A stretch of DNA of 64,000 bases from an uncultured bacterium. GTDB taxonomy: Bacteria; Electryoneota; Electryoneia; Electryoneales; Electryoneaceae. This document shows, in pieces, positions 17,359-51,839 of the stretch (position 1 is the stretch's first letter; each line of letters begins with the position of its first letter). The notes under the pieces are model-generated. The model searched no databases. It saw only the letters and a program-made list of their open reading frames with translations, and was not told the DNA's origin. Location of the stretch: contig CAJVXH010000001.1 in NCBI GenBank assembly GCA_913009835.1, positions 1,992-65,991 on the forward strand. Direction: 5' to 3'. The translations under genes and the position numbers were made by a program.

Positions 17359-17431
17359 GAGGATGTAGCTCAGTTGGTAGAGCAGGGGCCTTTTAAGCCC
17401 AAGGCCGAGGGTTCGAGTCCCTCCATCCTCA
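17359..17431 (+). tRNA. tRNA-Lys (anticodon TTT)
   Basis: Hand-folded cloverleaf: acceptor gaggatg/catcctc, D-stem gctc/gagc, anticodon loop cttttaa (TTT), T-arm gaggg-ttcgagt-ccctc, discriminator A. No encoded CCA. Confidence 0.85.
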
Positions 17432-17432
17432 C
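17386..17432 (+). repeat. attL core (3' part of tRNA-Lys) of the integrated island
   Basis: 47 bp from the anticodon stem to the tRNA 3' end is repeated, with 3 mismatches, at 54763-54809. Confidence 0.6.
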
Positions 17433-17531: not shown

Positions 17532-18629
17532 TTGTTACATGAGGTGACCATGGCAACGATACGCAAACGTACTACCAGAGACGGGTCTGTTTCCTACCAC
17601 GTTCAGATTCGGAAAAAGGGATTCCCCACCGAAACCACGTCCTTCTCCAATTTGACTCATGCCAAACGCTGGGCAAACCAAACTGAAACTGATATGGATG
17701 AAGGGCGTTACTTCAGAAACACTGAGGCGAAACGTCACACGGTCGAAGAAGCAATTGACCGATATCTGAAAGAAGTCCTTCCAAGGTATAAGGACCAAGC
17801 AAAACCATTGGTCCATTTGCGATTCTGGAAAGAGCGGATCGGGCACATGCTGCTGTCCGAACTGAAGACCGCAAAGGTTGTTCAGGAACGTGATCGTCTT
17901 CTTCGTGATGACAACCATCCAGGTGCAAAGATGAATCGTTCCTTCGGTCCTGCTACAGCGAACAGATACACCACCTCCCTCTCCCGTGTGCTGTCAGTAT
18001 GTGCTCGTGACTGGGGCTGGCTCGAGCAATCCCCGATGCGAGGCTTCAGGAAGCTGAAGGAAACACGTGGTCGTGTTCGCTATCTGTCCGATGATGAACG
18101 AGCTCGCATTCTGGCAGTTTGCCAAAGCAGTTCAAATCCCGACCTTTACCTTGCAGTCATACTCGCACTTTCAACCGGAGCTCGAAGAAGCGAACTGTGG
18201 AATCTCCGCTGGTCACAGATCGACTTGGCTGGTCAAAAAATCATCTTGGACGAAACAAAGAACGATGAGCGTCGCGTGCTTCCTATTTTTGGCAAGGCTC
18301 ATGAACTCCTGACCGAACGATCCATTACGCAACGCCGTCTTGATACCGATCTCCTCTTCCCTGGTCGAACAAATCCCAAGATTCCACAAGACCTCACTCA
18401 TCCATGGCAACGCGCTATCCAGGAAGCGAAAATCGTGGACTTTCGCTGGCACGACCTCCGCCACAGTGCAGCAAGCTACCTCGCCATGTCTGGAGCAACA
18501 CCTACTGATATCGCGGCAATCCTTGGTCACAAAACCTTGCAGATGGTCAAACGGTATGCACACCTCAGTGAACCACATACTGCAAGTGTGGTAGAGCGGA
18601 TGAACAAAAAATTTATGGGTGAATCGTGA
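17532..18629 (+). CDS. int: Tyrosine-type site-specific integrase
   Basis: 365 aa with a C-terminal catalytic region WHDLRHSAASYLAMSGATPTDIAAILGHKTLQMVKRYAHL (R..HxxR..Y pattern). The likely true start is MATIRKR at 17550. Confidence 0.9.
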   Translation: MLHEVTMATIRKRTTRDGSVSYHVQIRKKGFPTETTSFSNLTHAKRWANQTETDMDEGRYFRNTEAKRHTVEEAIDRYLKEVLPRYKDQAKPLVHLRFWKERIGHMLLSELKTAKVVQERDRLLRDDNHPGAKMNRSFGPATANRYTTSLSRVLSVCARDWGWLEQSPMRGFRKLKETRGRVRYLSDDERARILAVCQSSSNPDLYLAVILALSTGARRSELWNLRWSQIDLAGQKIILDETKNDERRVLPIFGKAHELLTERSITQRRLDTDLLFPGRTNPKIPQDLTHPWQRAIQEAKIVDFRWHDLRHSAASYLAMSGATPTDIAAILGHKTLQMVKRYAHLSEPHTASVVERMNKKFMGES

Positions 18630-19750: not shown

Positions 19751-20312
19751 TCCATACAGCAGATTTGTTCAAGCACTTAAATCGAGAGGTTTGCTCGTCT
19801 CAGAGAGAGATGGGAAGGGAACTGCTCGTTGTCCAGCACATGATGATCGGCATGCATCGCTTTCATTCTGTCGTGGTGATGACGGAAAACTACTCGTCAA
19901 ATGTCATGCTGGATGTGAGTTTGGAGACATCATGCACGCGTTAGGACTAGAACAAACTGATGCATTTATTGAGAACCTCAATGGAAATGCCCATCATAAT
20001 AGTACCGTGAATATCAAGAACAAGACCAAGCGCAAGAAAGTTGCGGAATACATCTATCGGGACGAACATGGCATAGAACAGGCACGGAAGGTCAGATTTT
20101 CCGATAAGTCATTCTCTTGGATACGAAACGGCAAGTGGGGCTTGAACGACTGGAAGCCACCGCTCTACAACCTTCACCTGTTGTACCAAGACAAAGACAG
20201 TCCCGTGTTGATGGTGGAAGGGGAAAAGGATGCCGACACACTCACACGTCTTGGATTCCTTGCTGTTTCGCCGCCAAACGGTGCGAGTATTAACCAGGTG
20301 TTAATAAAATGA
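19689..20312 (+). CDS. Primase N-terminal part: zinc-binding domain plus the first half of Toprim
   Basis: CPAHDDRHASLSF...VKCHAGCEFGDIMHALGL is a CHC2-like Zn finger. LMVEGEKDADTL is the Toprim catalytic Glu. An alternative start lies at 19740 (MRVDPYSRF). Confidence 0.6.
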   Translation: MNSSSIDGWLNKLRSRTMRVDPYSRFVQALKSRGLLVSERDGKGTARCPAHDDRHASLSFCRGDDGKLLVKCHAGCEFGDIMHALGLEQTDAFIENLNGNAHHNSTVNIKNKTKRKKVAEYIYRDEHGIEQARKVRFSDKSFSWIRNGKWGLNDWKPPLYNLHLLYQDKDSPVLMVEGEKDADTLTRLGFLAVSPPNGASINQVLIK

Positions 20313-22126
20313 AAGATGAGCATACAGCAGCGCTGAAAGGTCGAGAAGTATACGTCCTATGCGATAATGACGAGGCTGGATTCGCTCACCAGCTCTTGGT
20401 TGCTCATGCGCTTCATGGCAAGGCTGCACGAGTCTACACTGTGGAGCCGTTCGACACCCTTAAGGGCGAGGGTGGTGACGTAACTGACTGGGTTAATGAT
20501 CACGAACGAGAGGGGCGTGCGCAGAACGAGATCGCTGAGCTAATTGCCGAAACGTGTTCCCCACTCCACCGAGCTATCTTATTCGATCTGGAGAGCCCTC
20601 CACCATGGAGTATTGGATTGGATCAAAACACTCCGAAAACGTGTGACTTGTATGACAGTTCTTCTTGGGAGGAGCCGTTACCCCTGGACACCTTTGATCT
20701 CCGGGAATTGCCCGAAGACTTGCTCCCTCCTCCCCTTGGCCCAATGGTGTCAGCAGTCGCTCGATTCATAGAGGTTCCACCTGAGATACCCGCATTGACG
20801 ATATTTGCTATTGTCGCAACAGCGGTCCAAGGAAAGTATCGCGTTCAAATTCGCGAGGGACATCATGAAGAGCTGTCGATCTGGACAATGTCTCTCGCTG
20901 AATCAGGTGAACGAAAAACCCCAACTCTGGACCGACTTCGTATTCCATTGGATAAGTGGAAACACGATAGAGCGGCTAGTATTGCATCGACAATCCGGGA
21001 AGCAAAAGCCAAACGGGAATTGCAGGAACGTGCGATAAAGATCCTGAAGGAGCAAATTGAGATTGATGATCCTGATGAGCTTCAAGACGCAGCGTATAGG
21101 GTTGCAGATATGGAGGGTGCTCTCTCCACTATTCCGGTTCCACCTGAAATCTATTCGAACGACATTACTCCTGAGGAGTTGGTAGTCCGTATGGCGGAAA
21201 ACCATGGATGCATGGCCATAATCTCCGACGAGGCGGGCATGTTTGACACTTTGTCCGGACGATATGCTCAAAAAGGCGGTGTGAACCTTGATGCTGTGAA
21301 CTCGGGATGGAATGGCGGTAGAGTATCCAGTCATCGAAGATCTCGCGAGGCAATCCACATTGAACGTGCATACTTGTCATTTGCCCTGACCGTACAGCCT
21401 GATGCGGTTTCCGCAATGGCGGAAAAGGAACGTATGCGGTATCGAGGTTTCCTTCCCCGGTTCCTCTTTGTCATTCCACGGTCGAGAGTAGGATATCGAA
21501 CGAATACTGGACCAGCTATTCCATATTCCGTGCAATTAGAATATGAATCGACCATTCAGGCTCTGTTGGATATTGAACATTGCGATAGTGAGTCCGATGA
21601 AGATTATTCTGAATCCACTCCAAGAGAGTTGACCTTGTCGAAGCAGGCTTTCGCACTATTCCATGAGTTTTGGACGGAAATTGAAAAACAACTGCGAGAT
21701 GGCAACACCTTGGAAGGGATTCGGGAATGGGGAAACAAGTTCCCTGGCAACATTGCCCGGATAGCGGGTCTTCTCCATCTCTCTATATACGCCAAGAGCA
21801 CAATTCCATCCGAGATTGCTGCGTCCGAAATGAAGACCGCCATCAAATTCGGCAGCCTCCTCATCCCACACGCTTTAGCTGCCTTCAATCTTCTGGACGA
21901 ACCGGCACTTTATAAGAATGCCCGTTATCTACTCGGATGGATCAAACGCGAACGGTTAACCACATTCAAGACTCGAGATGCACAAAGGCGAAACCAGAGA
22001 CGATTTCGTCAGGCAACGCTTCAACCAGTTCTGAAAGAACTTGAGGAGCGAGGATACATCCGTAGTGGTGAAGCCGATGATCCCCGCGTCAAAATATGGG
22101 AGGTCAATCCTTGTTTGTTTTCCTGA
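20309..22126 (+). CDS. Primase C-terminal part: second half of Toprim (DxD) plus a DUF3987-like domain
   Basis: Begins with VYVLCDNDEAGFAHQ (Toprim DxD), followed by a large P4-alpha/DUF3987-like region. Overlaps the upstream ORF by 4 bp in a different frame. Confidence 0.6.
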   Translation: MKDEHTAALKGREVYVLCDNDEAGFAHQLLVAHALHGKAARVYTVEPFDTLKGEGGDVTDWVNDHEREGRAQNEIAELIAETCSPLHRAILFDLESPPPWSIGLDQNTPKTCDLYDSSSWEEPLPLDTFDLRELPEDLLPPPLGPMVSAVARFIEVPPEIPALTIFAIVATAVQGKYRVQIREGHHEELSIWTMSLAESGERKTPTLDRLRIPLDKWKHDRAASIASTIREAKAKRELQERAIKILKEQIEIDDPDELQDAAYRVADMEGALSTIPVPPEIYSNDITPEELVVRMAENHGCMAIISDEAGMFDTLSGRYAQKGGVNLDAVNSGWNGGRVSSHRRSREAIHIERAYLSFALTVQPDAVSAMAEKERMRYRGFLPRFLFVIPRSRVGYRTNTGPAIPYSVQLEYESTIQALLDIEHCDSESDEDYSESTPRELTLSKQAFALFHEFWTEIEKQLRDGNTLEGIREWGNKFPGNIARIAGLLHLSIYAKSTIPSEIAASEMKTAIKFGSLLIPHALAAFNLLDEPALYKNARYLLGWIKRERLTTFKTRDAQRRNQRRFRQATLQPVLKELEERGYIRSGEADDPRVKIWEVNPCLFS

Positions 22127-22981: not shown

Positions 22982-25900
22982 TCATGAGAAAAGATGATCG
23001 GGATTCGAGGTCGAAATGATTTGTGTCGCACCCACAATGAAATAAACGGATTCTATCTTGGGATTCTCATAGCTGTGTTCCCGGGTGAACCATTTCAGTT
23101 CGCATATCCAGCAGAGTTTTGCATGATGCTGCTCTACGAACTTGTCTATCACATCTCGATTCAGTGTTAGAACACTCCCATGACGAAATGGCATGTCGGC
23201 AATCTGCTTATCTTCCAACCCTTCTGTCCAGTCATACCATTGCGCTAATGCGGAATCCTCAACTTTGTAGATGATTTGATCCTGTTGAACATCAATTTGA
23301 ACTGTAGATTCTGCCAGCTGAGGATGCAGACCTCGGATTCTATCATCTAGTCGCCATGCTTGCCACCTGGGAGATGTATTTGGCCATAGCTCCGCTGAAA
23401 TTGGGAGAAGACTCCATCCGCCAAGTTGGAGTAATCCCTTTGGCGAGATTGAATCATCATAGCTGCCTGCGAACCTGCAATCACCAACGGTTGGTCTCTG
23501 TAGACCATAGCGTTCCATCGCCCCGAAGATGGCTTCATCAGAAATCCTATCTGAATCTGTACACCATTGAAGAGCACCCATGATTGTTACCTGAAATATC
23601 GTTCCAGATTTTTCACCGAGCCTCCCCTTCGCATAGCCCAAATAACCTTGCTTGGTTTCTAGTTTTAGTTCGTCCAACGTTCTCGATATATCCCCCGGCA
23701 GAGTATCAACAATCACCCCGGAGTCTTTATCAACACTGGGCCACCAAGCTGGAGAGCGACGAGGTTCGAGGGAGATTAAACTCAGATCGGTAGGTAGAGT
23801 TTCAATCGCGAAATTTCGTGCAGTTTCATCATCTATTTGCTTTGACGTTCTGAGCCACGTCAATAATCGGAGATACCCACTGATTGCACTCTCGTTAATT
23901 TTGATCTCAAAAGAAACGATATGTTCTGAATCTTTCCGCCCGTAGTGGCTACTAGCACTAAAATCAACATCTGTACGTTCTACTACCTTATTTGTTTCGT
24001 ATGCCCATCTCTGGAATAGATCAGTTGGGATGTTTTTCATCATATGTCTTAGGTGTCCCCGGATGAATCCCGGGACGATTGGGTAATGCCGCTCCCAGGA
24101 TTTCGGAGGACTGAACCTCATAACCGTAGAATCATCATGTTCTATGGAAGCAAGCCTAGTTTTCTGACCATACAATTCAAACAGCAGGTAGTCAGACAAC
24201 ACGCTGTGATATTGAATAGCTGCAACCAAAGCATCATAGTCGGGTAGCTGCGCGCCGTACTTCTCTTTTGCAACCAGCAACGTAAACAAACCGGTCGCAA
24301 CCCTGGTTTCCATATCTTGCTCTGAAAACCAGCTAATGAAAAAGTTTATCACTGTTCCGTTCTGTTGCTCATCGCCCAGTAGTTTGGCGATCTCAACGAC
24401 AGCTCTTTCTCGAACCATACCTGAGGGAGCTATCAGTCTGGAAAACAGCACACTCAGCGCTGTATTGTCGCCTTGGACCGGATCGATGATCCATACAGAT
24501 GGAGGAAGTTTAAAGGGTGATACCAAACCATGAAGAGTTATCATAACTCCAGAAATAAAGTCAGATGCGCTTCTACTTTGGTTCATTTTACATAAAAAAC
24601 CTACTATGTACCGTATCTCTCTATGTATCCCAAAATATCTATAATAGTATGGCATATGATAAACTAGTTCCCTTAAAATATCTCTCCAATTATTGTTGTA
24701 GTGATTCTTAATGATATCGAGTACATTTAATATCTCTTCTAATCTTGTATTCCAAGAACTCAATATTTGTTCTTCTTTACAGCATTCAATGAATATGGGT
24801 AACGCTTGTTTACGACCATATTTGCGGACCTCAAGATCATATCGAATGAAACCTGGTTTAAAATACGATTTCGTCTTGGAATAGTTGTCAATTGCTTCGA
24901 TGATTTGCTCTGGATCGATTTGCGTTTCCCAATGGGAAACCCACGGTTTAAGCCTGTCTGCATCATTGTAGATATCAGCATCAGAGCATGCTTGAAAGTA
25001 TTCATTCAGTTTGAGTGGAGGAAAGTTCGCTGGATCGGGTGGTGACTTAGATGCTGAGCTGGATCGTTTTTCCTGCAACTCTTCATCACTCTTCTTGCTT
25101 ACCCTTACGCCATAGTATTCTTCCAACTGTTCCATGATGTGAGCGGCAGCTGTGTCACCTGAACTTGCTCGTTCCCTAAGCCAGTTCCAAGAATCCTCAT
25201 CTACGCATGTACAGCCGATGGCAGCATAGATTGGATCGCTGAAGTCAGCCATTTCAAGGATGTTCAGAAAGTGTCGTTCAGCCCTGTAATACTCTTCACC
25301 TTCGATGAAATACAGATAGTACGGTGCGACGAGTTCGGGGTACAACCTGCGCAGGCTTGATCCGTAGTTTAGGGGAAAGTGCCTGGTCTCTTTACCATCC
25401 GTGTACTCGTCTATGCTGTCGAGTACTGGTGCAAGCTCAACCAAAGTTGATCTAATGAACTGTGCGTCGAGTGTATTGCGGTTTTCCTCCAAGGACTCAA
25501 GAATGTCATGGATCAATATGTCCTTTCTGTGACCATGAACGATGCAGAAGTCGATGAATGACCTTAATGCGCTGGATGCATATTCGGTCTTCCCGTTGAT
25601 GGCGAACACTGATGATATTGTTGCGTAGTTATATGCACCATCTGTCGAAGCAAATTCCACATCAGTCGCGCAGAATTGATCTCTGTTCTCATACAACCAA
25701 TCGAGAGCTCTTTCGGAAAGCCAAGTGAGTCTCCTGTCTTGCAAAAGCACAAGAATATCAGTGATGAAGGAGTGGGGGGAATTTGTCAATTCTATCAGGT
25801 CTTGATCTGAAATCGTCAGTCTAGTACCAACGGTAGTTGAAATGAGCATGGAATCAAGAACGATACGTAGGAAGACTTTGCGGAATGATTTCCCGTACTC

Positions 25901-28900
25901 AAAGCCTTCACGATCAATTGAGAAGTCGGGCGGCTCCAGTTCCGATAGTTGTTCATAATACCAAGCCACACCAGTATCCTCTCGCTGACCTAGCCTGTCT
26001 GCAAGAGTTTTTGCAAGGATGTCAATCCTGTACAGAGCATATTTTATCCACTTTTTAGATTTGGCCGAAGAGAAAAGTTCATCTCGTTTATCCACCATAC
26101 CTAACATATTTGTTAGGAGTAGATAAAAATAGCTATTGTAGAAAAAGTCATCAAGCTGAGGACCAAATTCATACAACTGGTACTCTTTGACTGAAAATAT
26201 CGAGGTATCAACAGCGATAATATCATTGATATCTGGGACAGTTCCATTTACCAGATAGCTTAAAATATGATACAAGTTTGAGTTACCATAATTAAAAATA
26301 GCCCAGGCAGTATCATTCTCAAGTGCACTAAGTATACCATCATCTATTAGAGTATTCTTCTCATCTTCAGTTAGATTTTCATTAACAAGATCACCAATGA
26401 CATTTGAATACCCGAGTTTGCGAAGAGCTTTCACATATGAAATAGGTAAATCTTTGAAAGTTCTATTATTAATAATATGTTCTGCTATATTCTTAGCATC
26501 ACAATCGTAAATACATATTACTTCTGTAAGAGGCATCAACAGAGATTTCTTATCTGTATGGTTATGGTTTGTACTAATCATATCATACATAATACCCTTA
26601 CATTTTAATACAATTTCTTCATTTCCATATTCATTCGCATAATATGCTATATAAGGCAATTCTTCTGCTCCATACGTATCTAAATTATAATCAATAAGCA
26701 TTATTAGATGATCATCTTCTCGAAGGATGAGTTGAGCTTCCAGAGCTCGTGAAAACGCTTCGTCATGGACTCCTAGATAATCAGGAGCTAAGTAGTCACA
26801 TAGAAGACCTCGTTCTGCAAACGATTTGAAATCATCCGACAGAAATGCATGTTTGGAGCTGAGTTCAACAATTCTTCTAACATTCCAGTCCGAATAACCC
26901 TTGGCAAAAGAGTCGATAGCCCATTCTCTGGTAGCTCCTTTGATGAGGTTTTCAGGATTTCCCTGCTTTGCCTGTACGATCCATAAATACGCCCAGCGCA
27001 GGTATTCAGGAGCATGGTTACTCAACCAGGATAACATTGCTTCGAGTAACCTAGACTTTCTTTCGGAATACTCGTTTGTCTCAGAGACAAAGACCTTTAG
27101 ACTACCGTGTACAGGCTTCCATCCCAACTCTGACGAAACAAGCAAATGCCTAACAGCAGACCATTCCGTTTGCGCTACTTCACGAGAAAACTCTGCCAGA
27201 ACAAGTACATCAGGAATAGACCCGGTCGGCCATGCAAAGTCAGCTAGCGTGAGCAGAATCAATGAAGACCGGCTAGCATCGCTAATTGCCAGCCATAGGT
27301 TGTTGTAGTAGCTCGTTATATTTTCATGGGGACAAACAGGTAGCGCTAAAACGTTTTTCTGGGTAATGGCTAGTTCCTGCTCGTAGAGGTTCTGAAGCGA
27401 GTATCGTAAATGCAACGGATGGCCATTGCTTATTTCTAGAAACGCATCAACGATATCTACTATTTCCTGTGGGTGACATTCCTCTCTTACTTGCCGCGAT
27501 GGTGGCGGGTGATTCAGATGGTAATCGACCCATCTTCCAACTGTATCTCGACCAAAGTGAGGTAACGTTAACCACGTATCAGTAGGAGCGTTCTTCAGGA
27601 AGCCGTATGGCAGTTGGGATTCCGATAAGGACTGAGTTCCAATTAGAAGAACGATATTAGAGGGAATAGGGAATAAATTCTTAAATAAATCAGAAAGTTC
27701 TGTTATGTTATGGTCTAATTCGCGCCACACATGATCAAGACCGTCAAGTACAATCACAAATGGATGTTCTCGTCTTTCAAAAGAAATGTTTAATTGTTCA
27801 ATCCATAATCTGAAGTCAGAAAAGGACGGGTTACGATTCTCATGGGAACCTAGACTCGAAGCATATTTCATTTGAATATCATGCATCAACGACTCAAGAA
27901 CTCGTTGAAATTCAAATCGGTCGTACGGTAGTGAATCATTGAGGCTCAAGAAATAGTGATGCCTCACAAACGAGATTTCGTCCTTTTTAAATTCGCTACA
28001 CAGGTTGCTTATGTATGTGCTCTTTCCAACCCCTGGGGGGCCAGATATCACATAGGTTGAACCGCCCCCAGATGCGAGTCGTGACTTTAGCTCCTCATGC
28101 CATCTCTCCGAAGGTAACATGAAGTCGTCAGGTATATTGAATCCCTGCTCAAACCCCCGAAGTCTATGCCATAGGGCTGCTTCACGAATCTCCAGGACAG
28201 TGATTTCGCGATTCTGATTTGGGATATCTTTCCGGAGTGCCCATTGCGTGATAGCTTGACGAAGCGAGTGCCATCCATCATTCGATCCACCCAACTGATC
28301 AAAACGATCACGGAGTCTTTCACACAGCACATTTAGATCTGTTTGGTCAAACTTGAATTGGAAGTTTTCTAGGAACGTCTTGATAGAATCAGCGTTGCCA
28401 AGCTGAGTAAGAAATTTGGCTTGAATAGATGCAGGGATTTTATCCCACTGCATGTATTGATCTTTCAGCGTTTCATCAATCTCGTCCACTGCCAATCGAT
28501 TCGTAACCAGGTTTCCGGATGGTGTCCCTTGCTGTTCGGATATGCGCTCAAAACTCTTGAACCACTTCTGCAATAGAGAGGTCTTCGGCTTGGATTTGTC
28601 TGTTCCCTGATCTAGTAGTTTTTTGAAGGTGAATGCGTCATCAAGTGGGTCGGGGTTTGTTGAAAACTTTGCCTGGTAGACCTCAATGGAACTATCCGCT
28701 CGCTTGAGTATCACATCATCCAGCGAGCCAAAGGAAGATTCTTCCACCTTCATCCACTGGTATCGATCCGGGTGTTCGAGCATGTAAATGGCAAACTGCA
28801 GGGCTATAGCATCTTGGTATTCATCACCAATGCGGCGTGGTCCTGATCGGGTGTAGGAAAGTTGTGGAGTTTGGTTTGCGGCTTCACTCATTACAAGGTT

Positions 28901-28924
28901 CCGAAAATTGTCGGTTCCGGCCAA
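22982..28924 (-). CDS. Giant STAND-type P-loop NTPase with N-terminal Cap4/DUF4297-like nuclease domain and long C-terminal helical-repeat region (Avs-like antiviral candidate)
   Basis: 1980 aa. N-terminus IGDEYQDAIALQFAIYML...VEESSFGSLDDVIL...EVYQAK fits the DUF4297 PD-(D/E)xK pattern. Walker A is VISGPPGVGKST and Walker B is FVIVLDGLDHV. About 1500 aa of repeat-like sequence follow. Confidence 0.7.
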   Translation of the reverse strand: MAGTDNFRNLVMSEAANQTPQLSYTRSGPRRIGDEYQDAIALQFAIYMLEHPDRYQWMKVEESSFGSLDDVILKRADSSIEVYQAKFSTNPDPLDDAFTFKKLLDQGTDKSKPKTSLLQKWFKSFERISEQQGTPSGNLVTNRLAVDEIDETLKDQYMQWDKIPASIQAKFLTQLGNADSIKTFLENFQFKFDQTDLNVLCERLRDRFDQLGGSNDGWHSLRQAITQWALRKDIPNQNREITVLEIREAALWHRLRGFEQGFNIPDDFMLPSERWHEELKSRLASGGGSTYVISGPPGVGKSTYISNLCSEFKKDEISFVRHHYFLSLNDSLPYDRFEFQRVLESLMHDIQMKYASSLGSHENRNPSFSDFRLWIEQLNISFERREHPFVIVLDGLDHVWRELDHNITELSDLFKNLFPIPSNIVLLIGTQSLSESQLPYGFLKNAPTDTWLTLPHFGRDTVGRWVDYHLNHPPPSRQVREECHPQEIVDIVDAFLEISNGHPLHLRYSLQNLYEQELAITQKNVLALPVCPHENITSYYNNLWLAISDASRSSLILLTLADFAWPTGSIPDVLVLAEFSREVAQTEWSAVRHLLVSSELGWKPVHGSLKVFVSETNEYSERKSRLLEAMLSWLSNHAPEYLRWAYLWIVQAKQGNPENLIKGATREWAIDSFAKGYSDWNVRRIVELSSKHAFLSDDFKSFAERGLLCDYLAPDYLGVHDEAFSRALEAQLILREDDHLIMLIDYNLDTYGAEELPYIAYYANEYGNEEIVLKCKGIMYDMISTNHNHTDKKSLLMPLTEVICIYDCDAKNIAEHIINNRTFKDLPISYVKALRKLGYSNVIGDLVNENLTEDEKNTLIDDGILSALENDTAWAIFNYGNSNLYHILSYLVNGTVPDINDIIAVDTSIFSVKEYQLYEFGPQLDDFFYNSYFYLLLTNMLGMVDKRDELFSSAKSKKWIKYALYRIDILAKTLADRLGQREDTGVAWYYEQLSELEPPDFSIDREGFEYGKSFRKVFLRIVLDSMLISTTVGTRLTISDQDLIELTNSPHSFITDILVLLQDRRLTWLSERALDWLYENRDQFCATDVEFASTDGAYNYATISSVFAINGKTEYASSALRSFIDFCIVHGHRKDILIHDILESLEENRNTLDAQFIRSTLVELAPVLDSIDEYTDGKETRHFPLNYGSSLRRLYPELVAPYYLYFIEGEEYYRAERHFLNILEMADFSDPIYAAIGCTCVDEDSWNWLRERASSGDTAAAHIMEQLEEYYGVRVSKKSDEELQEKRSSSASKSPPDPANFPPLKLNEYFQACSDADIYNDADRLKPWVSHWETQIDPEQIIEAIDNYSKTKSYFKPGFIRYDLEVRKYGRKQALPIFIECCKEEQILSSWNTRLEEILNVLDIIKNHYNNNWRDILRELVYHMPYYYRYFGIHREIRYIVGFLCKMNQSRSASDFISGVMITLHGLVSPFKLPPSVWIIDPVQGDNTALSVLFSRLIAPSGMVRERAVVEIAKLLGDEQQNGTVINFFISWFSEQDMETRVATGLFTLLVAKEKYGAQLPDYDALVAAIQYHSVLSDYLLFELYGQKTRLASIEHDDSTVMRFSPPKSWERHYPIVPGFIRGHLRHMMKNIPTDLFQRWAYETNKVVERTDVDFSASSHYGRKDSEHIVSFEIKINESAISGYLRLLTWLRTSKQIDDETARNFAIETLPTDLSLISLEPRRSPAWWPSVDKDSGVIVDTLPGDISRTLDELKLETKQGYLGYAKGRLGEKSGTIFQVTIMGALQWCTDSDRISDEAIFGAMERYGLQRPTVGDCRFAGSYDDSISPKGLLQLGGWSLLPISAELWPNTSPRWQAWRLDDRIRGLHPQLAESTVQIDVQQDQIIYKVEDSALAQWYDWTEGLEDKQIADMPFRHGSVLTLNRDVIDKFVEQHHAKLCWICELKWFTREHSYENPKIESVYFIVGATQIISTSNPDHLFS

Positions 28925-29057: not shown

Positions 29058-29312
29058 CTAGCGATTTAGGTGGGCATCAACTCGACGAAAGAATGCTTCA
29101 AGGCTTACATCCAGCTTCGACACAAATCGGCAGATCACTTGATACGTAGGATTTCGTACACCCCGTTCAACACCAGAAATGTACGTCCGATCCAAGCCGC
29201 AGCGGAACGCATACTCTTCCTGCGACAGCCCGAGTTCTTTCCTGAACTCACGCAGTGTATCTCCGAGCGCCTTAGCCTTAGCGGTGTCTACTGGGATCTT
29301 GAGTCTTGACAT
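29058..29312 (-). CDS. XRE-family helix-turn-helix transcriptional regulator
   Basis: 84 aa with LREFRKELGLSQEEYAFRCGLDRTYISGVERGVRNPT, a canonical XRE HTH. Confidence 0.75.
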   Translation of the reverse strand: MSRLKIPVDTAKAKALGDTLREFRKELGLSQEEYAFRCGLDRTYISGVERGVRNPTYQVICRFVSKLDVSLEAFFRRVDAHLNR

Positions 29313-29565
29313 AGACCCATATCTATGCTATCTATGACTATAAGTCTACGGACTATAAGTCACACACTCCGTTGGATTGAATGCTATTGAAAGGGAACAA
29401 CGACCATGCTGGGAGGGCTACTGGAAGAAGCATCGATCATCCAATCTGAGTATGGGCATGAACTTATGGCGGATTAGAGACAACCCAGAATCGGTCACTC
29501 AGTTCGAGGTGGCTAGATCCTGTGTGAAACACATGCATCCAAAAGGGATGAGTAAAGGGGGTTCC

Positions 29566-29994
29566 ATGTTCAGGAATATTGTAATGGCAGTTCTGTTGTT
29601 GCTGGTGGTATATAGCTTAAGCCATGCTGCCAGTCCACCAGTTTTGCTGGCTTCTCTTGACGCCGGTTATATGCTGAAAGGGGACGATAGCAGGGTTACC
29701 AGATACCGCTATCTTGTGTCACTGCTGGATGACAAGTACACAGAAACGCCTACCCAAATCGGCGATATGACGGTGACCGCACAAAAACAACTCAAAGACA
29801 AGTACGGAATCCGTACCAACCTCCTTACGATTCTTGAAGATACGAATCGAATTATTCTGTCTACAATTAATAATCCAAAGCCGAAGTATGCGGAATGGGC
29901 GGCCGCCTACGTTGTACTCGTCGGGGGTGGACAGGATCACAAAGAGGCCGCATTGGACTTGCAGGCATTAGCTCAGGTGTATGGATTGCTCTAG
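29566..29994 (+). CDS. Hypothetical secreted protein
   Basis: The ORF track opens at 29377, but a Shine-Dalgarno sequence (aaaggggg) precedes the ATG at 29566, which gives a clean signal peptide MFRNIVMAVLLLLVVYSLSHAASP. Confidence 0.4.
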   Translation: MFRNIVMAVLLLLVVYSLSHAASPPVLLASLDAGYMLKGDDSRVTRYRYLVSLLDDKYTETPTQIGDMTVTAQKQLKDKYGIRTNLLTILEDTNRIILSTINNPKPKYAEWAAAYVVLVGGGQDHKEAALDLQALAQVYGLL

Positions 29995-30338: not shown

Positions 30339-33300
30339 CTATTGATCGGATGACTTGTAGACTAATCGATATTTTGCTGGATATATGAGTAGCTTACCTT
30401 TCTCACGCATATCCATCAACCTGAGACCTGTTACCTCCAGTGGTTCGTCATCATCATCTTGCAATAAGAGGGAATATTTGTTTGGATATTTATAACATAA
30501 TCTCCATACGTCAGCATCTAGTTGAAGAGGCCCTCTTTCAAGGCAATGTTCCTTGATACAATAACACTTAAGTAGTTCTCCAAGCGAGGATCTTCTTTCC
30601 CACGGGAAACTTTGAACAACGCTCTCTCTTGCAATCCAGCTGCCATCTTCGTGAATGAATCGGTCTTTCCCATCATTGAAATACCCTTGAGCTTTTGCGA
30701 ATCGTTCAATGAAGGAAATCATGCCTTTCGCCGATTTCTGCAGTCGTTGTGGTAAGCGAACATTTCCTGAATCTATCCCATCCTGTTCATCTCCAGCGTC
30801 TTTGCCCACAATAACTTCTTCAACTTCTCCTTTGTTTTCTGATGATACGGGGGTTCCATCTTCTCCGGTTTTTCTATTACTGGATTCCACTTCTGTTGCT
30901 TTCCCGTTTTCAATCGTATTATGACCAACAGCGATTTTTTCTTCGGATTTGATATTATTAACTCTTTGATCAACATCCACTCCCGGTACTAGTTCAAAAT
31001 TCTCTTCCATGTACTCAGAAATAAATTCTGGAGAACGGTCATAGCAAAGCTTGATCGCGTCATTAATTTCAGATTGTGCGAATACACGGCCCAATTCTCT
31101 AGCGACTGCCATTGCCATCCTAGGTGCTGACAGATCTTCAACAAATAGTCGCCTATCTTTCCAGAAAGCTGTTATTCGTCGTTGTGTTCCTACAGGTGTT
31201 CCGTCTATGTAAGGGATTGTCTCCAGGCCGGATATAACTAACAACTCCGATTCTCTAAGCTGGTCAGCGAGATTATGTATTCGCAGTGTATCTTCCTCGC
31301 TATTGAGATTGACACGACAAAGCTCTGCCCCAATTGCAGTTAACCAAGGTAGTTTTTCAGGAGCCTGAGAAACTGAGGGTTCTTCCAGAATGCGTTCTTC
31401 AATTGAATCTCCCAAACTGTCAAGTTCTGAAAACGGGTACTGAGTATAAATTTCTGAAGGCAGCACTTGGAGATCAGCCGTTATCTGCTTAATAGAATCA
31501 AAAAGATGCTTTCGTGGAATTAACGTTTGCATTGTTAATGAATAGACCAACTGTTCAGTAGGCACCCATTCATTATTAATATTAAACCAATATTTGCATT
31601 CTTTCCAAATTCGAATTGGATATAGTGATAACAAAGATTTAATACGGCGTATTTCATCACCAGAAGGAATTTGTCCTGATGGAAGCTGCTTCAACCATTC
31701 GAGTGTTAGATCAACAGTTGGATGATCTTTGATCCCCAATCTTCGCCATAAGCTTAGGTTTTGAAACGACGAATTAACAATTGCTGCACCAAGTATACTC
31801 TCTTCATCAGCAGCTAAGAATACTTCTTCGATACTAGCCCATTTACCATCATCAGTTAATATTAGTTTTTCCGTCTTGAACAAATTCTTTATTTCCTCAA
31901 ACTCATCTGTGTCGCACCTGCAAACCAGTTGATCTACGTATTGATACCATTTTACTAGTTCGAATAATGGCGGATTGTTCATCTCTGATAGATTTCGAAT
32001 CCTCTCAATTAATCGATTTGATCCTGTAGGTGTATCTCGCACACCGAGTCTAGCCAGCAGAGGTCGTAAGGCTTCGGTATCATACTCAGCCTTTATAAAC
32101 GGTTCCACTTCAAGAAGTGGCTCTGTTTCTGGTGTACGACGGAGAAGCTCAGCTGGTTGCCGCATTTTCCCTCTGGTGTCTTCTATACAGGGAAGACCTC
32201 TGAGTTTCACTATCCAGCTTGGAAGAAGAGTATTTGAAGTTACCGGCCTTTCTGTCCAATCGCGGCTTTCCTGGGTAGCTTTTGCATTCAAGGCTTTTGC
32301 CCAGTGTCTTGGATCCTGTTCTAGGATTTGATTGCCAAGTTTGCCCCAAAAACTCGGATCTGATTCATAATTATTCTCCCAGTATTTCCAGTGCTTGCTA
32401 TCGAAATCCCATCCATCAATCAGGTAGCGGTCAGTCTTATATGGGAAGGATGGTACGGACTCCAATCCCAGTGATTTCATTAATTCTATAAACTTATTTC
32501 GATTATAATAGACATCTCTTCTTTTGTCCAATGACACAAAGTCATTCAGTTTGCTCCTGGCTGATTTGATCCATTCTTCCCACTCTTCTTTTGAGCAAGA
32601 AGTGTAGTTACCAAAATATTCATCATGAATAACATGTTCTTCACACCATTCTTTTGAGACAAATTTATTTAGATTACCATATGAATCAATGTGTATAGCG
32701 CTATCAACAGCTTTCAGCATTCCATCTCTTGTAACGTACTTAAATTTCTCAGATGCTGTGGCCTTCAGCGCTGCAGCTATATGAGCGATCCGTATATAGT
32801 CTTTAATATTACTGTCATCTTGTGAGAAGATATAGTCTGCCACTAATTCAATGATCTTACTAGTATCTGATGATTCTGCCATCTTTACTGAGGATAAAAC
32901 TGAATATGCAACCTCTACTTGTTTCGCAAATCTCAGATCTTCGCATTCTGTAGCTAGTCTTCTTTGTTTTGCCAGATAACGAGTCCAACTTTGATTTAAT
33001 ACGAGTATACGTCTTGACAAGAATTTCCAATCGTCATTAGATCTCAATAATTTTCTTTCACCAAACCTAATAACTTCGTATGCTGCGTAGAGATTGCTCT
33101 TTCCACGAACAGGAAGGATCCTAACTCCTTTATGATCAGGATAATAACTAGTTACTTCTTCAGAAAGATATTCCCATAGGATCAAGAGCTGTTTCCAACT
33201 TCCAGGTTTTGGTAGGCGTCTTCGTTTAAGAGTATCAATGATTTCCGACTTTTGAAGTTCATTGACACAGCTCCAACGAACAAGCTTCTTTCTATTTGTA

Positions 33301-34559
33301 TCACTCACGCTCCTTGAGAGGATTGCTTTATCATCGGAACAAAGGAATTTGGAAATATGATTTGTATCCCAGATTTCTAGTAACTCAGGTGGTACAGAGA
33401 CACACCCTTTCCATCGCTGAAGATTTCCATCCTCGTCGAGAAGAAATGGAATCTCTTTTATCCATTCCTCGAAAGCCAATTCAACAATTGTTCCACACGA
33501 CCCCTCAATCGAGTTATCCTCTCTGTCGACATCAGGAAAGATCGAGTAAGCATGGCAACGACTTTCGATTGATTCGGTTGTGGTGTTTAACCAAGCACGC
33601 ATTGCAGCTGAAGCGATCTTCCCTGACCGCTCGAGCAACCAACGATTAGTAGGAGAAATCTCGGGGCTCTTTATTTTAACGCGGGCTGGATCTTGTATGA
33701 AAGGAGCGTTACAAGCGAATGGTAGTGTCGTCTTGACACCAGTCGGTAGAATTACAAACAATCTACCTTGAAGTCCAAGGACAATTTCAACCCGGGCAGG
33801 AGGGAACTCGGTTTCCTCAGAATTTGTTACCCTTCTCTCTTCCTTAATTTCTTCTAATGCATCTGCAGGAAATTCCTCAGGGTCAGATTTGATCAGCAAA
33901 TATTTCTTGTCAGGTGCAGTGGAAAGATACATCCACTCGGAATTTTCAATGGGGCCTATTGCTGACGCTACCCAGCTTACATCTTGATCTTCTATCCTGA
34001 GACTTCGGAGATGCCTGAAAAACAAAAGCGAAGTAGGGCTACTAACCCATTCAGCAAAATTTTTCTTCAGTTCAGCAATACAATGCTCGTTTTCAATCTT
34101 CACTCGTATTTCAGTTGCATCCAGTACATTTTCTCTTTCTATCCAAATAGGCTCCGTAAATCTGGTCTTATTGAAGCGGATGGACAGGGTAGGAGTAAGC
34201 AACACAACATCTTTTCCAAGACTGAACGTGCTCTTGAAACCGATACCTCGAAATCCAATCGTATGAAGGGTACGCTTGTTTGAATAACCAAAACGGCAAA
34301 GCGAAGTAAGATGCTCTTCAGAAAAATCATCTCCATCATGACGAAAAATAAATTCATTATCAACAATATCGACACTTGCACAAGTTGCATGAGCATCATC
34401 TGCGTTCTGGAGTAATTCTGATATTACGTGTCTTGGACTTTGAACTTGGTTAAAGAGTTGGTGCCAAGGCCCAGCCAAATCCGGGTCGTTCTCAAGCTGA
34501 TCCCACCGTTTGGAAGCCTGAGAACGAATTGACTCGAAATATGTGGGCTTATGGCACAT
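30339..34559 (-). CDS. Sacsin/MORC-like GHKL ATPase, 1406 aa, last gene of the defence operon
   Basis: N-box ISELLQNADDAHAT and G2 box GFRGIGFKSTF near the N-terminus; large C-terminal region; 80 bp downstream of the DUF499 gene on the same strand. Confidence 0.7.
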   Translation of the reverse strand: MCHKPTYFESIRSQASKRWDQLENDPDLAGPWHQLFNQVQSPRHVISELLQNADDAHATCASVDIVDNEFIFRHDGDDFSEEHLTSLCRFGYSNKRTLHTIGFRGIGFKSTFSLGKDVVLLTPTLSIRFNKTRFTEPIWIERENVLDATEIRVKIENEHCIAELKKNFAEWVSSPTSLLFFRHLRSLRIEDQDVSWVASAIGPIENSEWMYLSTAPDKKYLLIKSDPEEFPADALEEIKEERRVTNSEETEFPPARVEIVLGLQGRLFVILPTGVKTTLPFACNAPFIQDPARVKIKSPEISPTNRWLLERSGKIASAAMRAWLNTTTESIESRCHAYSIFPDVDREDNSIEGSCGTIVELAFEEWIKEIPFLLDEDGNLQRWKGCVSVPPELLEIWDTNHISKFLCSDDKAILSRSVSDTNRKKLVRWSCVNELQKSEIIDTLKRRRLPKPGSWKQLLILWEYLSEEVTSYYPDHKGVRILPVRGKSNLYAAYEVIRFGERKLLRSNDDWKFLSRRILVLNQSWTRYLAKQRRLATECEDLRFAKQVEVAYSVLSSVKMAESSDTSKIIELVADYIFSQDDSNIKDYIRIAHIAAALKATASEKFKYVTRDGMLKAVDSAIHIDSYGNLNKFVSKEWCEEHVIHDEYFGNYTSCSKEEWEEWIKSARSKLNDFVSLDKRRDVYYNRNKFIELMKSLGLESVPSFPYKTDRYLIDGWDFDSKHWKYWENNYESDPSFWGKLGNQILEQDPRHWAKALNAKATQESRDWTERPVTSNTLLPSWIVKLRGLPCIEDTRGKMRQPAELLRRTPETEPLLEVEPFIKAEYDTEALRPLLARLGVRDTPTGSNRLIERIRNLSEMNNPPLFELVKWYQYVDQLVCRCDTDEFEEIKNLFKTEKLILTDDGKWASIEEVFLAADEESILGAAIVNSSFQNLSLWRRLGIKDHPTVDLTLEWLKQLPSGQIPSGDEIRRIKSLLSLYPIRIWKECKYWFNINNEWVPTEQLVYSLTMQTLIPRKHLFDSIKQITADLQVLPSEIYTQYPFSELDSLGDSIEERILEEPSVSQAPEKLPWLTAIGAELCRVNLNSEEDTLRIHNLADQLRESELLVISGLETIPYIDGTPVGTQRRITAFWKDRRLFVEDLSAPRMAMAVARELGRVFAQSEINDAIKLCYDRSPEFISEYMEENFELVPGVDVDQRVNNIKSEEKIAVGHNTIENGKATEVESSNRKTGEDGTPVSSENKGEVEEVIVGKDAGDEQDGIDSGNVRLPQRLQKSAKGMISFIERFAKAQGYFNDGKDRFIHEDGSWIARESVVQSFPWERRSSLGELLKCYCIKEHCLERGPLQLDADVWRLCYKYPNKYSLLLQDDDDEPLEVTGLRLMDMREKGKLLIYPAKYRLVYKSSDQ

Positions 34560-34639: not shown

Positions 34640-37600
34640 TCAATCACGCTCGAAATTGTTGATGTCAAAACCTAGCGTGTTGCTGTTTTCTGCAACGATT
34701 CTAACTAGATCATCGCCAATTCCGTTTGAGACGGTAATCCGAATTTCCAAGCTTACTTCTATATCTGCACCAGGAAGAGTTGATAGATGTTGGATCACTT
34801 CTTCAGCTACTTGGCCAGCATCGCGACCTATCCTGTCACTGTTGAGCTTCACAGATCCAATGAATGTTGTTGGCTTCCGCTGTCGATCCTCTTGATCGTT
34901 TTTACCATCATCCTTTCTATCTCCCCCACCAATTTCCTTATCACCATTGCCATTGTCACCACCGTTCTTTTGCTCTTTTTCTTTCCTCTCACGGTCCAGC
35001 TGAACTGTTGCCACGTCCGGCTTGACAATCAGAGTTCCATTTTCAAGGACAACTTCTTGACCGTAACGCAGTCCAACATATTTGTCTTTTACTTCATCAT
35101 ATCCATCGGCAACAGCAAAGGTCTCCTCGATAACCGTTCGGTTAATTCCATCCTGGATAGCTCTATCCAACGTTGCACGATCACGGATGCGTGACAAATA
35201 GATATAGCGTGAGAAGTAGTCCAGCAGATCTTTGAAAGCGATGTGGTTTCGGTCATTCCAGAGATATCGATCGATTTCCATTCGCAGCCGTGCGCCACCC
35301 ATCACAGGCATGAGTAATTCTTCGTGAACAAGTTTTGCAGCTGTACGTTTTGCAAGTGGATTGTTCCCATTGGCTCGAATTACCTGCCATTCTATTTCTT
35401 TGGCAGGGTCAGGTTGGATGGGGACAATCGCATGAACCCAGGTTTCTAGAATACGAAGATCAACCGTTTCGTTTGAGCTTGACAAATTGGCACTAGCTTG
35501 ACGACGGCCATAAGCGTCAAGGTTCAATTCTTCCTTTTCTTCGTTTATCGACTTCCATGCCAAGTATTGCGCTGTCGCTTGCAGAAGATCATCGAGGGTC
35601 TTCTTGTCTGCGGTTAGGAATACAACCATGTTCCGCAACAAACGTGGTGAATTTCCTCGAGTTTCAAGGATCAGCTTTGCCTGCTTAATTGCGTCAGTAT
35701 CGACCTTTCCCTTCCGGTGGGCGTGTTCAGGTCCGAGAATAACGAGTCGTGCCTCAGGTTCATCCGATACTTCATTCGTAGCGATTGGGCAGCGATGCAC
35801 CGCTGCAAATTCGCCCCGAGTCTGGTCATTCCGTATTCGCTGGACGATTTCTGCATAAAGACCTTCGACCTGCCGCGAATGTTCATTCGTGCGATCATCG
35901 GCCAGTCTGTTCAGATTCGCCTTGGTTGAAATCCAGTATCTGTTGCCATCATGATGAATATGAGCGGCTCTATCAGTGATTCGTCGCAACGCATCCCCAA
36001 AGGTCGCTGTCGCTTCTCCAGGTTGAACGCATCCGAGCCGAATCGCACGATCATTAATGCCCGGGTTGCTACCTTTCGATCCCGGAGCCGTTCCTACATA
36101 CAGTGTTCTTGCAACACGTCGACAAGCAGAATAACGCCCAAGGGTGCTTGCGTTCTCACCATCCAATTTATATGGCAAGGAACTTGGACCATCAACATCT
36201 GCGCTGATGATGGGTTCCCAAACATCTTCAAGGAACTGCGTCAGCTCAGACTTCACTGCATTGTCATCCATTGGAATGGTCGCGGGCATAATCAGCAGGC
36301 TACCATCTTGTGAACTCCACATTCGATGAATCACCTTTGCTAGAAGACGCAACACGCCACGAGTCCGTTGGAACTTATCAAGCGTTGACCATTCACCATA
36401 AAGCTTATCGAATAATTCTGGGTGAAAAGGATAGGCGAGCTCTAGTCTTCTACGATATGCACCTTCTTTGCATTCATTTGGGAAATCGTTTTGAGACGAT
36501 TGGTACATTTGCGAAAAAGCACCAACAACAGCATCTCGAGCAACAAAGTCATCGCGGTCAGTGATTGGTTCAAATAAACGTCGACGAACGATTTCAAAGC
36601 CTTCTTCAGCTGTTGCAGGACGCCAGGGCTTGCCTAATCGCTTGAACACTCCTTTTAATGATTCGAGTGCAAACTCGCCATTCTCCCCACCGATCTCGAT
36701 CCTCGATGCTGGCAGGGTCGCCACGACTAATGTATTTTCTGCTGCTCGAGCTGCTTCAGTAAGGGCTTGGGCGAAGGATGCCTGAGACTCAAAATCTCCA
36801 CTTGCAAGATCATGTTTCCCGACCGTCTGGCGAGCATATGCGACCCATTCGTCGATCAGGATGATACACGGAGCTGCCGCATTGAATAATTCTGACAGAA
36901 TCTCAGATCCGGGACTTATCCCGTTTCTGTCGGAATCTGCAACCATGTCATAGCCATCTTTACCTGCAAGCTGCCATGCCATTTCTCCCCAAAGCGTTCG
37001 GATCTCGGTGCCATCATGTTTAGTGACGACCTCACCGGGTGAAAGCGCTGTGCCAACCAATACTGCTCGACTAGCCGCAGGAGCATGGTCAAGCTCCAAC
37101 TCCTTCAGGATGTCTTCCATTCCAGGGAGGGCTGTAGATCTTTCCTCACTGAACAGGTGAAAGAGTGCCAGCATGGAGTGTGTCTTCCCGCCACCAAAAT
37201 TGGTCTGCAGTTCAACTACTGGCTCGCCACCTTTGCCGGACAATCTGAGAAGGGCATCTTTCAAGAGATCTTTTATACCAGCAGTGATGAAAGTGCGCCT
37301 ATAAAACTCAACCGCGTCCTGGTATTCTGAAGTGGCTTCGCCTCTAGCAACTTGAGATAGATCTGCAGCAAACTCAGCTTGTTGGTATTGACCGGACGCA
37401 ACATCAGGATGAGGAACGATGACTTCACGCCATGGCTTAAGGCTGGCGGTTGGAGAACCTTCTACTGCGACAGTGTACCTTGTCTTGTTTCTTGACTGCT
37501 CAGCGTATACGGTACGCTGGAGCGCTATTTTCATTTTACCGATTTCTTCAGCTTGTTTGCTGGCTGATATGGCTTGAAGAAGTCGTTGGATTGAATCAAG

Positions 37601-37945: not shown

Positions 37946-37972
37946 ATCGTTAAATGTTGTAACCCGTCTGAA

Positions 37973-38605
37973 TCAATCTTCATCGTTACTATTTAAATCG
38001 CCCTCAAGGGTCTCAAGCTTTGATACATCTATGAAACATTTTATAGGATTCATAATATTTTCAAATGCTTCTTGCTGACTTTCAATTCGAAGACGCTGTA
38101 TTGAACCCGATGCCTCCGCTGGAAGCTCAGATAACGGGTAATAGTCCTGGATGCCACTACTCGATATATAGGATTCAAACCCAGATGGATATGGTGTTGT
38201 ACGACCATCCCAGTCGCCATGGTGCATTAAACAACCGCTGGGAGCTGGTGACTCTCCAATAAACGCCAGTCCAAATGGCTGTTGGTCAATCGCGTAAGCT
38301 CTTTCATCAATTCTATTTGCGTTAGCCATGCAGTAAGCCACGCCTTCATCTGAGCCTGAGGTCATCACGAAAACCGAATCACATTTATCCAGCAAAGGCT
38401 GCGGAAAACTTCCTGTCGGCAGTTGATCTGGTGATACAATTTTCCATGTATTCAATGGGCATAGATCGAGCCATTTCTCTTTAGATTGGTTCTCTACGTT
38501 GAACCAAGATAGTTTTTTCTTTGACTTCTTTTTAGCCATATCAATCTCCACGATCCGCAAAAATGGATGCTTTGCGCACTCCCTCGCTGCGAACTTTTTC
38601 AACAA
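37973..38605 (-). CDS. Hypothetical protein in defence operon
   Basis: 210-aa ORF (a possible later start is MAKKKSKKK), tightly spaced between the methyltransferase and DUF499 genes. Confidence 0.4.
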   Translation of the reverse strand: MLKKFAARECAKHPFLRIVEIDMAKKKSKKKLSWFNVENQSKEKWLDLCPLNTWKIVSPDQLPTGSFPQPLLDKCDSVFVMTSGSDEGVAYCMANANRIDERAYAIDQQPFGLAFIGESPAPSGCLMHHGDWDGRTTPYPSGFESYISSSGIQDYYPLSELPAEASGSIQRLRIESQQEAFENIMNPIKCFIDVSKLETLEGDLNSNDED

Positions 38606-38609
38606 TCAG

Positions 38610-38918: not shown

Positions 38919-38930
38919 TTTTGATCCTTT

Positions 38931-47909: not shown

Positions 47910-47917
47910 TAAGTTCC

Positions 47918-51768: not shown

Positions 51769-51839
51769 TCACATAGTTTCAGTCGATACGTAGAGTTTTT
51801 TGGCTTATGGCTTTCGATCAACAATCGCAAAATTCATGA

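Follow-up and report, generated by a model that had tools for sequence, protein, structure and literature searches.

A fused two-component form of a candidate Avs-type defence nuclease on a tRNA-integrated island of an uncultured bacterium

Here, we identify a gene of an uncultured bacterium of the Electryoneaceae as the fused form of a widespread, unnamed two-gene system, in which a large multidomain protein (A) and a partner of ~500 amino acids (aa), module B, are encoded side by side or as a single chain. The gene (22982..28891, minus strand) lies in a stretch of 64,000 nucleotides (GenBank assembly GCA_913009835.1, contig CAJVXH010000001.1, positions 1,992 to 65,991), referred to as the window and used for all coordinates below. 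From N- to C-terminus, its product comprises a Cap4-type nuclease, a STAND nucleoside triphosphatase (NTPase), a TPR-like solenoid and module B. By analogy with characterised systems, the gene very probably encodes an Avs-type defence nuclease. We also consider it probable that this protein acts in antiphage defence by abortive infection and that module B, here fused to A, is part of its sensor. In bacteria, Avs proteins correspond to the NLR immune receptors, and the families known so far each recognise a single conserved phage protein; the family described here is widespread yet unnamed in PADLOC 2.0, NCBIfam 20 and Pfam.

Multiple lines of evidence support the assignment of the protein to the Avs-type architecture. 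First, the N-terminal effector region (aa 1-262; 28106..28891, minus strand) is a Cap4/DUF4297-type PD-(D/E)xK nuclease, with its core at aa 13-150, followed by a helical extension. It is matched by the PADLOC profiles for the CBASS endonuclease effector (Cap4-type; E = 3e-14), SAVED_PDDEXK (8e-14) and LmuA of Lamassu (2e-8), and relatives score up to 6e-22 against the same Cap4-type models. Pfam PF14130 Cap4_nuclease, the former DUF4297, scores below its cut-off on the window protein (15.4 bits versus 26.2; E = 0.022), reaches E ≤ 0.01 in 12 of 20 family members (best 3.8e-7) and also figures among the domains precomputed for many homologues. The N-terminal profile of the family aligns to residues 10-63 of SeAvs7 (E = 0.0017) in PDB entry 9N00, the apo form of that protein, in which the Cap4 nuclease spans residues 2-225. 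The catalytic motif lies at aa 50-75 (E50 ... D58-D59 ... Q73-x-K75; 28667..28744, minus strand). In the family alignment used to score residue conservation throughout (n = 58 sequences), D58, D59, Q73 and K75 are invariant and E50 is present in 57 sequences; given this conservation, the PD-(D/E)xK site of the window protein is intact. The original prediction, made from the DNA letters alone, had read a DUF4297-like nuclease from the strings EYQDAIALQFAIYML, VEESSFGSLDDVIL and EVYQAK; all three are found at aa 24-75, and the profile matches, the SeAvs7 alignment and the invariant catalytic residues bear this reading out.

Second, aa 263-620 (27032..28105, minus strand) form a STAND (NACHT-like) NTPase module with nucleotide-binding, helical and winged-helix domains. 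Three Pfam P-loop profiles score above their curated cut-offs on aa 261-620, i.e., AAA_16 (43.7 bits, cut-off 32.6; E = 5e-11), NPHP3_N (37.8 bits, cut-off 24.8; E = 3e-9) and NACHT (29.1 bits, cut-off 26.7), and the best named match is the NTPase of Avs1b (in PADLOC, 6e-15 for the window protein, with relatives reaching 3e-18; in NCBIfam, 2e-9 for NF041810). The Walker A motif GPPGVGKST (aa 284-292; 28016..28042, minus strand), which had been quoted beforehand, is present, with G289, K290 and S291 invariant and T292 found in 57 of the 58 sequences. The same holds for the Walker B motif VIVLDGLDHV (aa 379-388; 27728..27757, minus strand), in which D383, G384, L385 and D386 are invariant. Thus, the earlier assignment to the STAND/NACHT group is confirmed by the profile search. 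The sequence GHPL (aa 490-493) and H595 in the winged-helix domain (both within 27107..27424, minus strand; G490, P492, L493 and H595 all invariant) may, judged by their position alone, be the GxP and MHD-like motifs of STAND proteins. About 20 residues past Walker A lies the sequence RHHYFLS (aa 310-316; 27944-27964, minus strand), essentially unchanged throughout the family, in which R310, H311 and H312 are invariant and which we do not recognise as a standard STAND motif.

Third, the NTPase is followed by a TPR-like solenoid (aa 621-1469; 24485..27031, minus strand), which we propose to be the first part of the sensor and for which a high-confidence, all-alpha structure is predicted. The effector-NTPase-sensor layout that had been read as Avs/NLR-like is therefore supported by a Cap4-type nuclease, a STAND NTPase and a TPR-like solenoid. 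The original prediction had assigned some 1500 aa to a repeat-like sensor; of these, ~850 aa are indeed TPR-like solenoid, but the last 500 aa are a separate module. The expectation, set beforehand, that the C-terminal region would not be an enzyme held, in that no enzyme family matched and the solenoid model is TPR-like. An enzymatic C-terminus was rejected, as for aa 620-1969 nothing in Pfam, PADLOC or NCBIfam rose above noise (FecR_C, DpnD_N and DUF3593, all E > 0.01) and the structure models of both the solenoid and module B show folds unlike those of enzymes.

Within the otherwise variable solenoid, a polar patch at aa 1118-1173 (HGxHKD ... TDGDETGH; 25373..25540, minus strand) forms a local peak of conservation. 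K1123, T1164 and D1165 are invariant in the alignment, and D1124 and T1169 are each found in 57 sequences; the window protein itself is off-consensus at two near-invariant positions, with Arg in place of H1122 and Lys in place of D1167. Over the C-terminal 1350 aa, conservation is strongest at aa 1100-1250 of the solenoid rather than in module B. The patch could serve as the interface with module B, or it could touch a conserved site on the trigger. The 'HKD' at aa 1122-1124 was also considered as a site of the phospholipase D type and rejected, as the solenoid is all-helical and no profile of that family matched.

The evidence that the window gene is a fused form comes from its homologues. 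Among 120 homologues retrieved by BLASTP, the majority are ~1470-1500 aa long and extend to window residue ~1468; the others, fewer in number, have ~1940-2014 aa and span the whole protein. In the loci of short forms, the next gene downstream encodes a protein of 466-505 aa with no Pfam domain and in many cases has an overlap of 1-4 nucleotides with the A stop codon. Two such downstream genes (loci L001 and L002) are homologous to aa 1470-1969 of the window protein (BLASTP 9e-51 and 5e-44), i.e., to module B (22985..24484, minus strand). To survey this arrangement, hidden Markov models (HMMs) of the A part and of module B were run over 83 loci, 80 of them obtained by scanning GTDB species genomes, in which 225 stretches were found to encode a relative. 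B lies directly downstream of A in 47 of the 83 loci and is fused to it in 26, so that the two are adjacent or fused in 73. The remaining 10 are mostly contig ends or frameshifted or disrupted copies; in one locus, B lies 1.7 kb away from A (L039), and in another the module B HMM found no B (L035). Copies in three loci are pseudogenised (L023, L047 and L080). On a neighbour-joining tree of the A parts, which is rough and without support values so that the count is approximate, at least eight changes between the fused and the split state are seen, and close pairs of opposite state (L043/L041 and L003/L002) likewise point to repeated fusion or fission. One locus, from Polaromonas sp. CT11-55 (L024, 8213-19986), carries two complete A-B pairs tail to tail, and its two A proteins are placed on separate branches of the tree, as would result from tandem acquisition of two variants or from an old duplication.

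No other obvious context of module B was found among its best matches. An exhaustive profile search returned 743 representative clusters, 369 of them at E ≤ 1e-30. The best 150 of the 743 are mostly stand-alone proteins of ~500 aa or the C-terminus of ~1950-aa proteins; proteins of shorter or intermediate length among them are read as truncated calls, and no obviously different fusion partner is seen among these 150. Word-index searches with module B, using the single sequence or a 13-sequence profile, gave only P0121, which reflects the limits of the index and not rarity.

The AlphaFold2 (AF2) model of module B (mean predicted local distance difference test score 83.6, predicted TM-score 0.82) combines a HEAT/ARM-like helical half with a beta-rich half. 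The invariant residues of the module are mostly Trp, Pro, Gly and Leu, with no cluster of acidic, His or Cys residues, and based on this composition module B is probably noncatalytic. The only significant PDB match in a structural search with the model was SeAvs3 (AVAST type 3 of Salmonella enterica; PDB 8DGC), a sensor of the large terminase with which module B, as modelled, shares the sensor fold. This specific resemblance suggests that module B is an old sensor module. Gao et al. 2022 are said to have described the whole region of SeAvs3 that follows the NTPase as sensor. At the level of sequence, the only PDB match of module B was the TRIM21 B-box (E = 0.012), to the stretch FCWVC(R/E)L at module residues ~443-479; we judge this match to be spurious, as conservation does not extend to the zinc ligands and the stretch is a beta-strand in the model.

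For Avs proteins with nuclease heads whose mechanism has been worked out, an autoinhibited monomer binds a specific phage protein through its C-terminal sensor, oligomerises with ATP and degrades DNA indiscriminately, causing abortive infection (PMC13581612; PMC11564622; 10.1101/2025.07.02.662641). All elements that such a cycle requires are present and conserved in the window protein, and it is therefore the best-supported mechanism. By analogy with SeAvs3, EcAvs4, SeAvs7 and Avs8, we infer the following scheme. In the resting state, the NTPase would be closed and ADP-bound, and the Cap4 nuclease would be sequestered. Upon infection, the C-terminal sensor would envelop a protein made by the phage; this sensor would be a composite of the TPR-like solenoid (aa 621-1469) and module B (aa 1470-1969). 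Trigger binding would open the NTPase, and ATP binding would then lead to oligomerisation, probably to a tetramer, in that way bringing the PD-(D/E)xK domains together to form an active double-stranded DNA endonuclease that would degrade phage and host DNA alike. Module B would serve as a noncatalytic binding subunit that is physically associated with the end of the A solenoid. The near-universal linkage of A and B together with their repeated fusion suggests that module B binds the end of the solenoid and acts with A, and such a physical association would explain that B is adjacent or fused.

If a single trigger is to be named, the large terminase is the most likely candidate, although this is a weak inference that we put forward tentatively. 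It is favoured because module B has a predicted fold like that of SeAvs3 and because, among named NTPases, that of Avs1b is nearest; SeAvs3 and Avs1b both belong to the Avs1-3 group of terminase sensors (PMC11564622; PMC13581612). More speculatively still, the protein may be a two-component Avs in which the recognition surface is split between the A solenoid and B, an ancient module shared with Avs3, and in which the polar patch reads the conserved active site of the trigger or a nucleotide bound there, the terminase being the first candidate. The family would then stand as a deep sister group of Avs1-3 that crosses phyla, and NLR-like sensors could be assembled in trans.

A number of observations weigh against a defence protein with module B in its sensor. 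The sensor and module B are recognised by no PADLOC, NCBIfam or Pfam model. The structural match between module B and SeAvs3 has a modest TM-score of 0.43, normalised to the query, and the aligned SeAvs3 residues were not visible in it. At the level of sequence there is no link to SeAvs3, as phmmer and hmmsearch runs against PDB sequences, family profiles included, miss 8DGC. Several relatives lie in ordinary chromosomal neighbourhoods. Finally, in the one characterised two-gene Avs system the second gene, Avs8B, is dispensable for defence (10.1101/2025.07.02.662641).

The last of these points bears on the strongest alternative, namely that the protein is an Avs-type defence nuclease but that recognition occurs wholly in the TPR solenoid, while B lies outside the sensor and acts as an autoinhibitory cap or antitoxin-like brake, as an adaptor to a host factor or as a dispensable accessory comparable to Avs8B. 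Besides the dispensability of Avs8B, the use of host EF-Tu as a structural component by SeAvs7 (PMC13581612) would fit such a role, as would the HEAT-like, protein-binding half of module B and the peak of C-terminal conservation in the solenoid at aa 1100-1250 instead of in B. On the other hand, B is kept beside or fused to A in nearly all intact loci, which span many phyla, and has been fused repeatedly, which argues for an obligatory physical role and contrasts with the dispensability of Avs8B. Moreover, the only structural relative of B is SeAvs3, a single chain in which everything after the NTPase is reportedly sensor. We therefore regard a B outside the sensor as unlikely, if worth keeping in mind, and favour a composite sensor made of the solenoid and module B.

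The setting of the gene is in line with a role in defence. The island that carries it was said to be integrated at a tRNA gene, and this proved correct. It is ~37.4 kb long, has a GC content below that of its flanks and is integrated at a tRNA-Lys(UUU) gene (17359-17432, plus strand) that marks its left end; the 3' part of the tRNA gene forms attL (17386-17432, plus strand) and is repeated over 47 nucleotides as attR (54763-54809, plus strand) at the right end, with 45 of 47 positions identical and no chance match expected. A tyrosine integrase gene (17532-18629, plus strand) adjoins the tRNA gene. Close to the integrase lie a gene for a DUF3987 protein (20309-22126; 1.6e-90) and an open reading frame (ORF) of 207 aa with weak primase-like matches, and together these two suggest the backbone of a satellite-like or integrative mobilisable element. 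At higher window coordinates, Tiamat TmtA, all three components of an Hma system (HmaA, HmaB and HmaC) and PDC-S69 are encoded as well, and because of this content the island is, judged from its genes, a defence island.

An XRE-family helix-turn-helix (HTH) gene of 84 aa (29058..29312, minus strand; HTH_3 1e-14, PADLOC control protein 5e-14, CapH 4e-7) lies 166 bp upstream of the Avs-type gene on the same strand. It resembles control proteins of restriction-modification systems and CapH, and it is possibly a local transcriptional controller. The XRE neighbour noted earlier is real, but it is a local addition and not a conserved partner; as a homologue lies immediately upstream in just one other of the 83 related loci (L058), a role as a conserved component of the system was rejected. 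Past the XRE gene and an ORF of 205 aa without matches (29377-29994), the 1406-aa GHKL-ATPase TmtA of Tiamat (30339-34559, minus strand; PADLOC 4.5e-52) appears from its sequence to be a second, single-gene defence system. It is followed by the Hma system (34640-45319, minus strand; HmaC 1.5e-298, the HmaB methylase and the HmaA SNF2 helicase with E reported as 0). In HmaC, the DUF499 ATPase is preceded by a Swt1-like HEPN domain at the N-terminus (aa 16-127; 1.9e-32), and an unassigned ORF of 210 aa (37973-38605) sits between HmaC and HmaB. The gene for PDC-S69, a PADLOC candidate system, encodes 313 aa (45537-46478, minus strand; 7.7e-112), including a KilAC/ANT antirepressor-like stretch and a C-terminus resembling HEAT_CxxC_PD-DExK. 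The distal third of the island (46848-54294, minus strand) holds a cluster for sugar and cell-surface modification with genes for GNAT/FemAB-like proteins, a pyruvyl transferase, a GT2 glycosyltransferase, a NUDIX protein, a nucleotidyltransferase, a GFO/IDH/MocA oxidoreductase and a DegT aminotransferase. These could alter phage receptors, and the island may therefore combine intracellular with surface-level defence. Flanking the island is a gene for a subtilase with a Por_Secre_tail sorting domain of type IX secretion (57113-58909, minus strand), which points to a host of the Bacteroidota/FCB group and agrees with the labels of the MAGs that encode near-identical copies of the window protein (see below).

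At least 225 species-level genomes encode relatives of the window protein, with a range that runs from Chloroflexota and Acidobacteriota to Klebsiella and Escherichia coli and takes in two archaeal metagenome-assembled genomes (MAGs); none was found in phage genome records. Fused homologues are encoded on plasmids of Klebsiella and Serratia, conjugative plasmids included. Of 5426 complete E. coli genomes, 4 carry them, located between insertion sequence (IS) elements and integrases. In E. coli 1517k (locus L084; NZ_CP054388.1, 1666037-1671805), the fused protein WP_128452452.1 (1922 aa, annotated 'AAA family ATPase') is flanked by remnants of IS630 and IS3, integrases, another AAA ATPase and a hypothetical gene. 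In a further locus (L086), a type I restriction-modification system and GmrSD adjoin the A-B pair. An association with defence genes or mobile elements is thus seen in individual cases, i.e., at the window island, at L086, on plasmids and in IS-rich regions.

These data also bear on the alternative that the protein merely happens to be located in a mobile island and, as a STAND NTPase, serves in housekeeping or signalling, for instance as a regulator or a DNA-repair factor. Many STAND clades are not defensive (PMC13581612), some homologues lie among metabolic genes, and NCBI names homologues just 'ATP-binding protein' or 'AAA family ATPase', all of which would be compatible with such a role. 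Yet a Cap4-type head is typical of the effectors of CBASS, Lamassu and Avs, the profile searches found no DNA-binding or output domain of the regulator type, and the distribution is patchy and mobile, as seen from the E. coli counts, the conjugative plasmids and the tRNA island. With Tiamat, Hma, PDC-S69, type I restriction-modification and GmrSD among the neighbours as well, we consider a housekeeping role improbable, and a defence function is preferred.

Concerning the gene itself, the ORF noted earlier at 22982-28924 is real; the list of ORFs has it as a single, uninterrupted minus-strand frame of 1980 codons that begins at TTG and translates without internal stop. Such a frame has a chance probability of ~e^-115, calculated from ~5.6% stops per random codon in DNA of ~45% GC. 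The probable start is the ATG at 28891, which with the stop codon at 22982-22984 gives 1969 aa (MSEAANQ...); this start is preferred because the public-collection protein P0125 is exactly 1969 aa long and because alignments with homologues begin at about residue 13. Copies nearly identical to the window protein are present in several metagenome assemblies, from MAGs labelled bacterium BMS3Bbin04, Zixibacteria and Bacteroidota, and P0002, the closest homologue otherwise (44% identity), shows the same architecture over its full length. A scan for promoters and terminators around the gene was uninformative, with fewer matches than in shuffled sequence. The two altered near-invariant positions in the sensor (H1122 to Arg, D1167 to Lys) and the pseudogenised copies elsewhere could be taken as signs of a decayed fusion, with the window copy being no more than an inactive relic, but this is very improbable given an uninterrupted 5.9-kb frame, fully intact catalytic and nucleotide-binding residues, the shared architecture of P0002 and the near-identical copies in other assemblies.

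The recurrent split and fused forms offer a natural experiment in the assembly of a STAND sensor from two chains, and the native E. coli homologue WP_128452452.1 makes the family directly testable. For annotation, genes of the window type and the ~500-aa 'hypothetical' gene that follows the short forms are to be treated as one defence system.

Among known systems, the characterised Avs proteins with nuclease heads are SeAvs3, EcAvs4, KpAvs2, SeAvs7 and Avs8A, and those that have Cap4 or Mrr as their head act as DNases activated by phage proteins (PMC13581612; PMC11564622; 10.1101/2025.07.02.662641). SeAvs7 (PDB 9N00/9N01/9YIX), a sensor of the major capsid protein, shares with the window protein the combination of Cap4 nuclease, STAND NTPase and TPR sensor, and the aligned residues of its Cap4 domain include the GDxYQ, DDVV and QxK motifs shared with the N-terminal profile of the family. 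It passes from an autoinhibited apo form to a trigger-induced tetramer with Cap4 DNase activity and recruits EF-Tu from the host as a structural component (PMC13581612). The N-terminal PD-(D/E)xK domain is also homologous to those of CBASS Cap4 and of Lamassu LmuA (DUF4297); there, however, the nuclease responds to cyclic oligonucleotides by way of SAVED or to an SMC partner, and no STAND NTPase is fused to it.

As to SeAvs3, the equivalent of its C-terminus is a separate polypeptide in most relatives of the window protein. Avs3 models were absent from the PADLOC matches of the window protein (E ≤ 1), of six relatives (E ≤ 0.01) and of four more (E ≤ 0.001), these ten relatives including enterobacterial ones. 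Avs1b (AVAST type 1), a terminase-sensing STAND protein of ~1930 aa, has the nearest NTPase, but the match is limited to profile positions ~207-536 of 1924; the window protein reaches 35.2 bits against the 1500-bit cut-off of the full-length Avs1b equivalog (NF041810), and the effector of Avs1b is a protease and not a Cap4 nuclease. The gene arrangement resembles that of Avs8 (PD-lambda-4), a two-gene operon in which Avs8A, with nuclease, STAND and sensor parts, is followed by the small, domain-less Avs8B (10.1101/2025.07.02.662641), much as A is followed by B. The Avs8 effector is Mrr, whereas the head of the window protein is of the Cap4 type, and no PD-Lambda-4 model is among the PADLOC matches of the window protein, which places it outside Avs8.

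A recent survey, which covers Avs7-24 among others, distinguished 589 STAND clades, of which 198 are defence-associated, and 684 sensor clusters (Lee et al. 2026); the family described here may well be among them. Altogether, while its sequence falls outside Avs3, Avs1b and Avs8, the window protein has the generic features of STAND and Avs proteins and appears to represent an uncharacterised Avs family with one modestly unusual trait, a dedicated second subunit that in the window copy is fused to the first.

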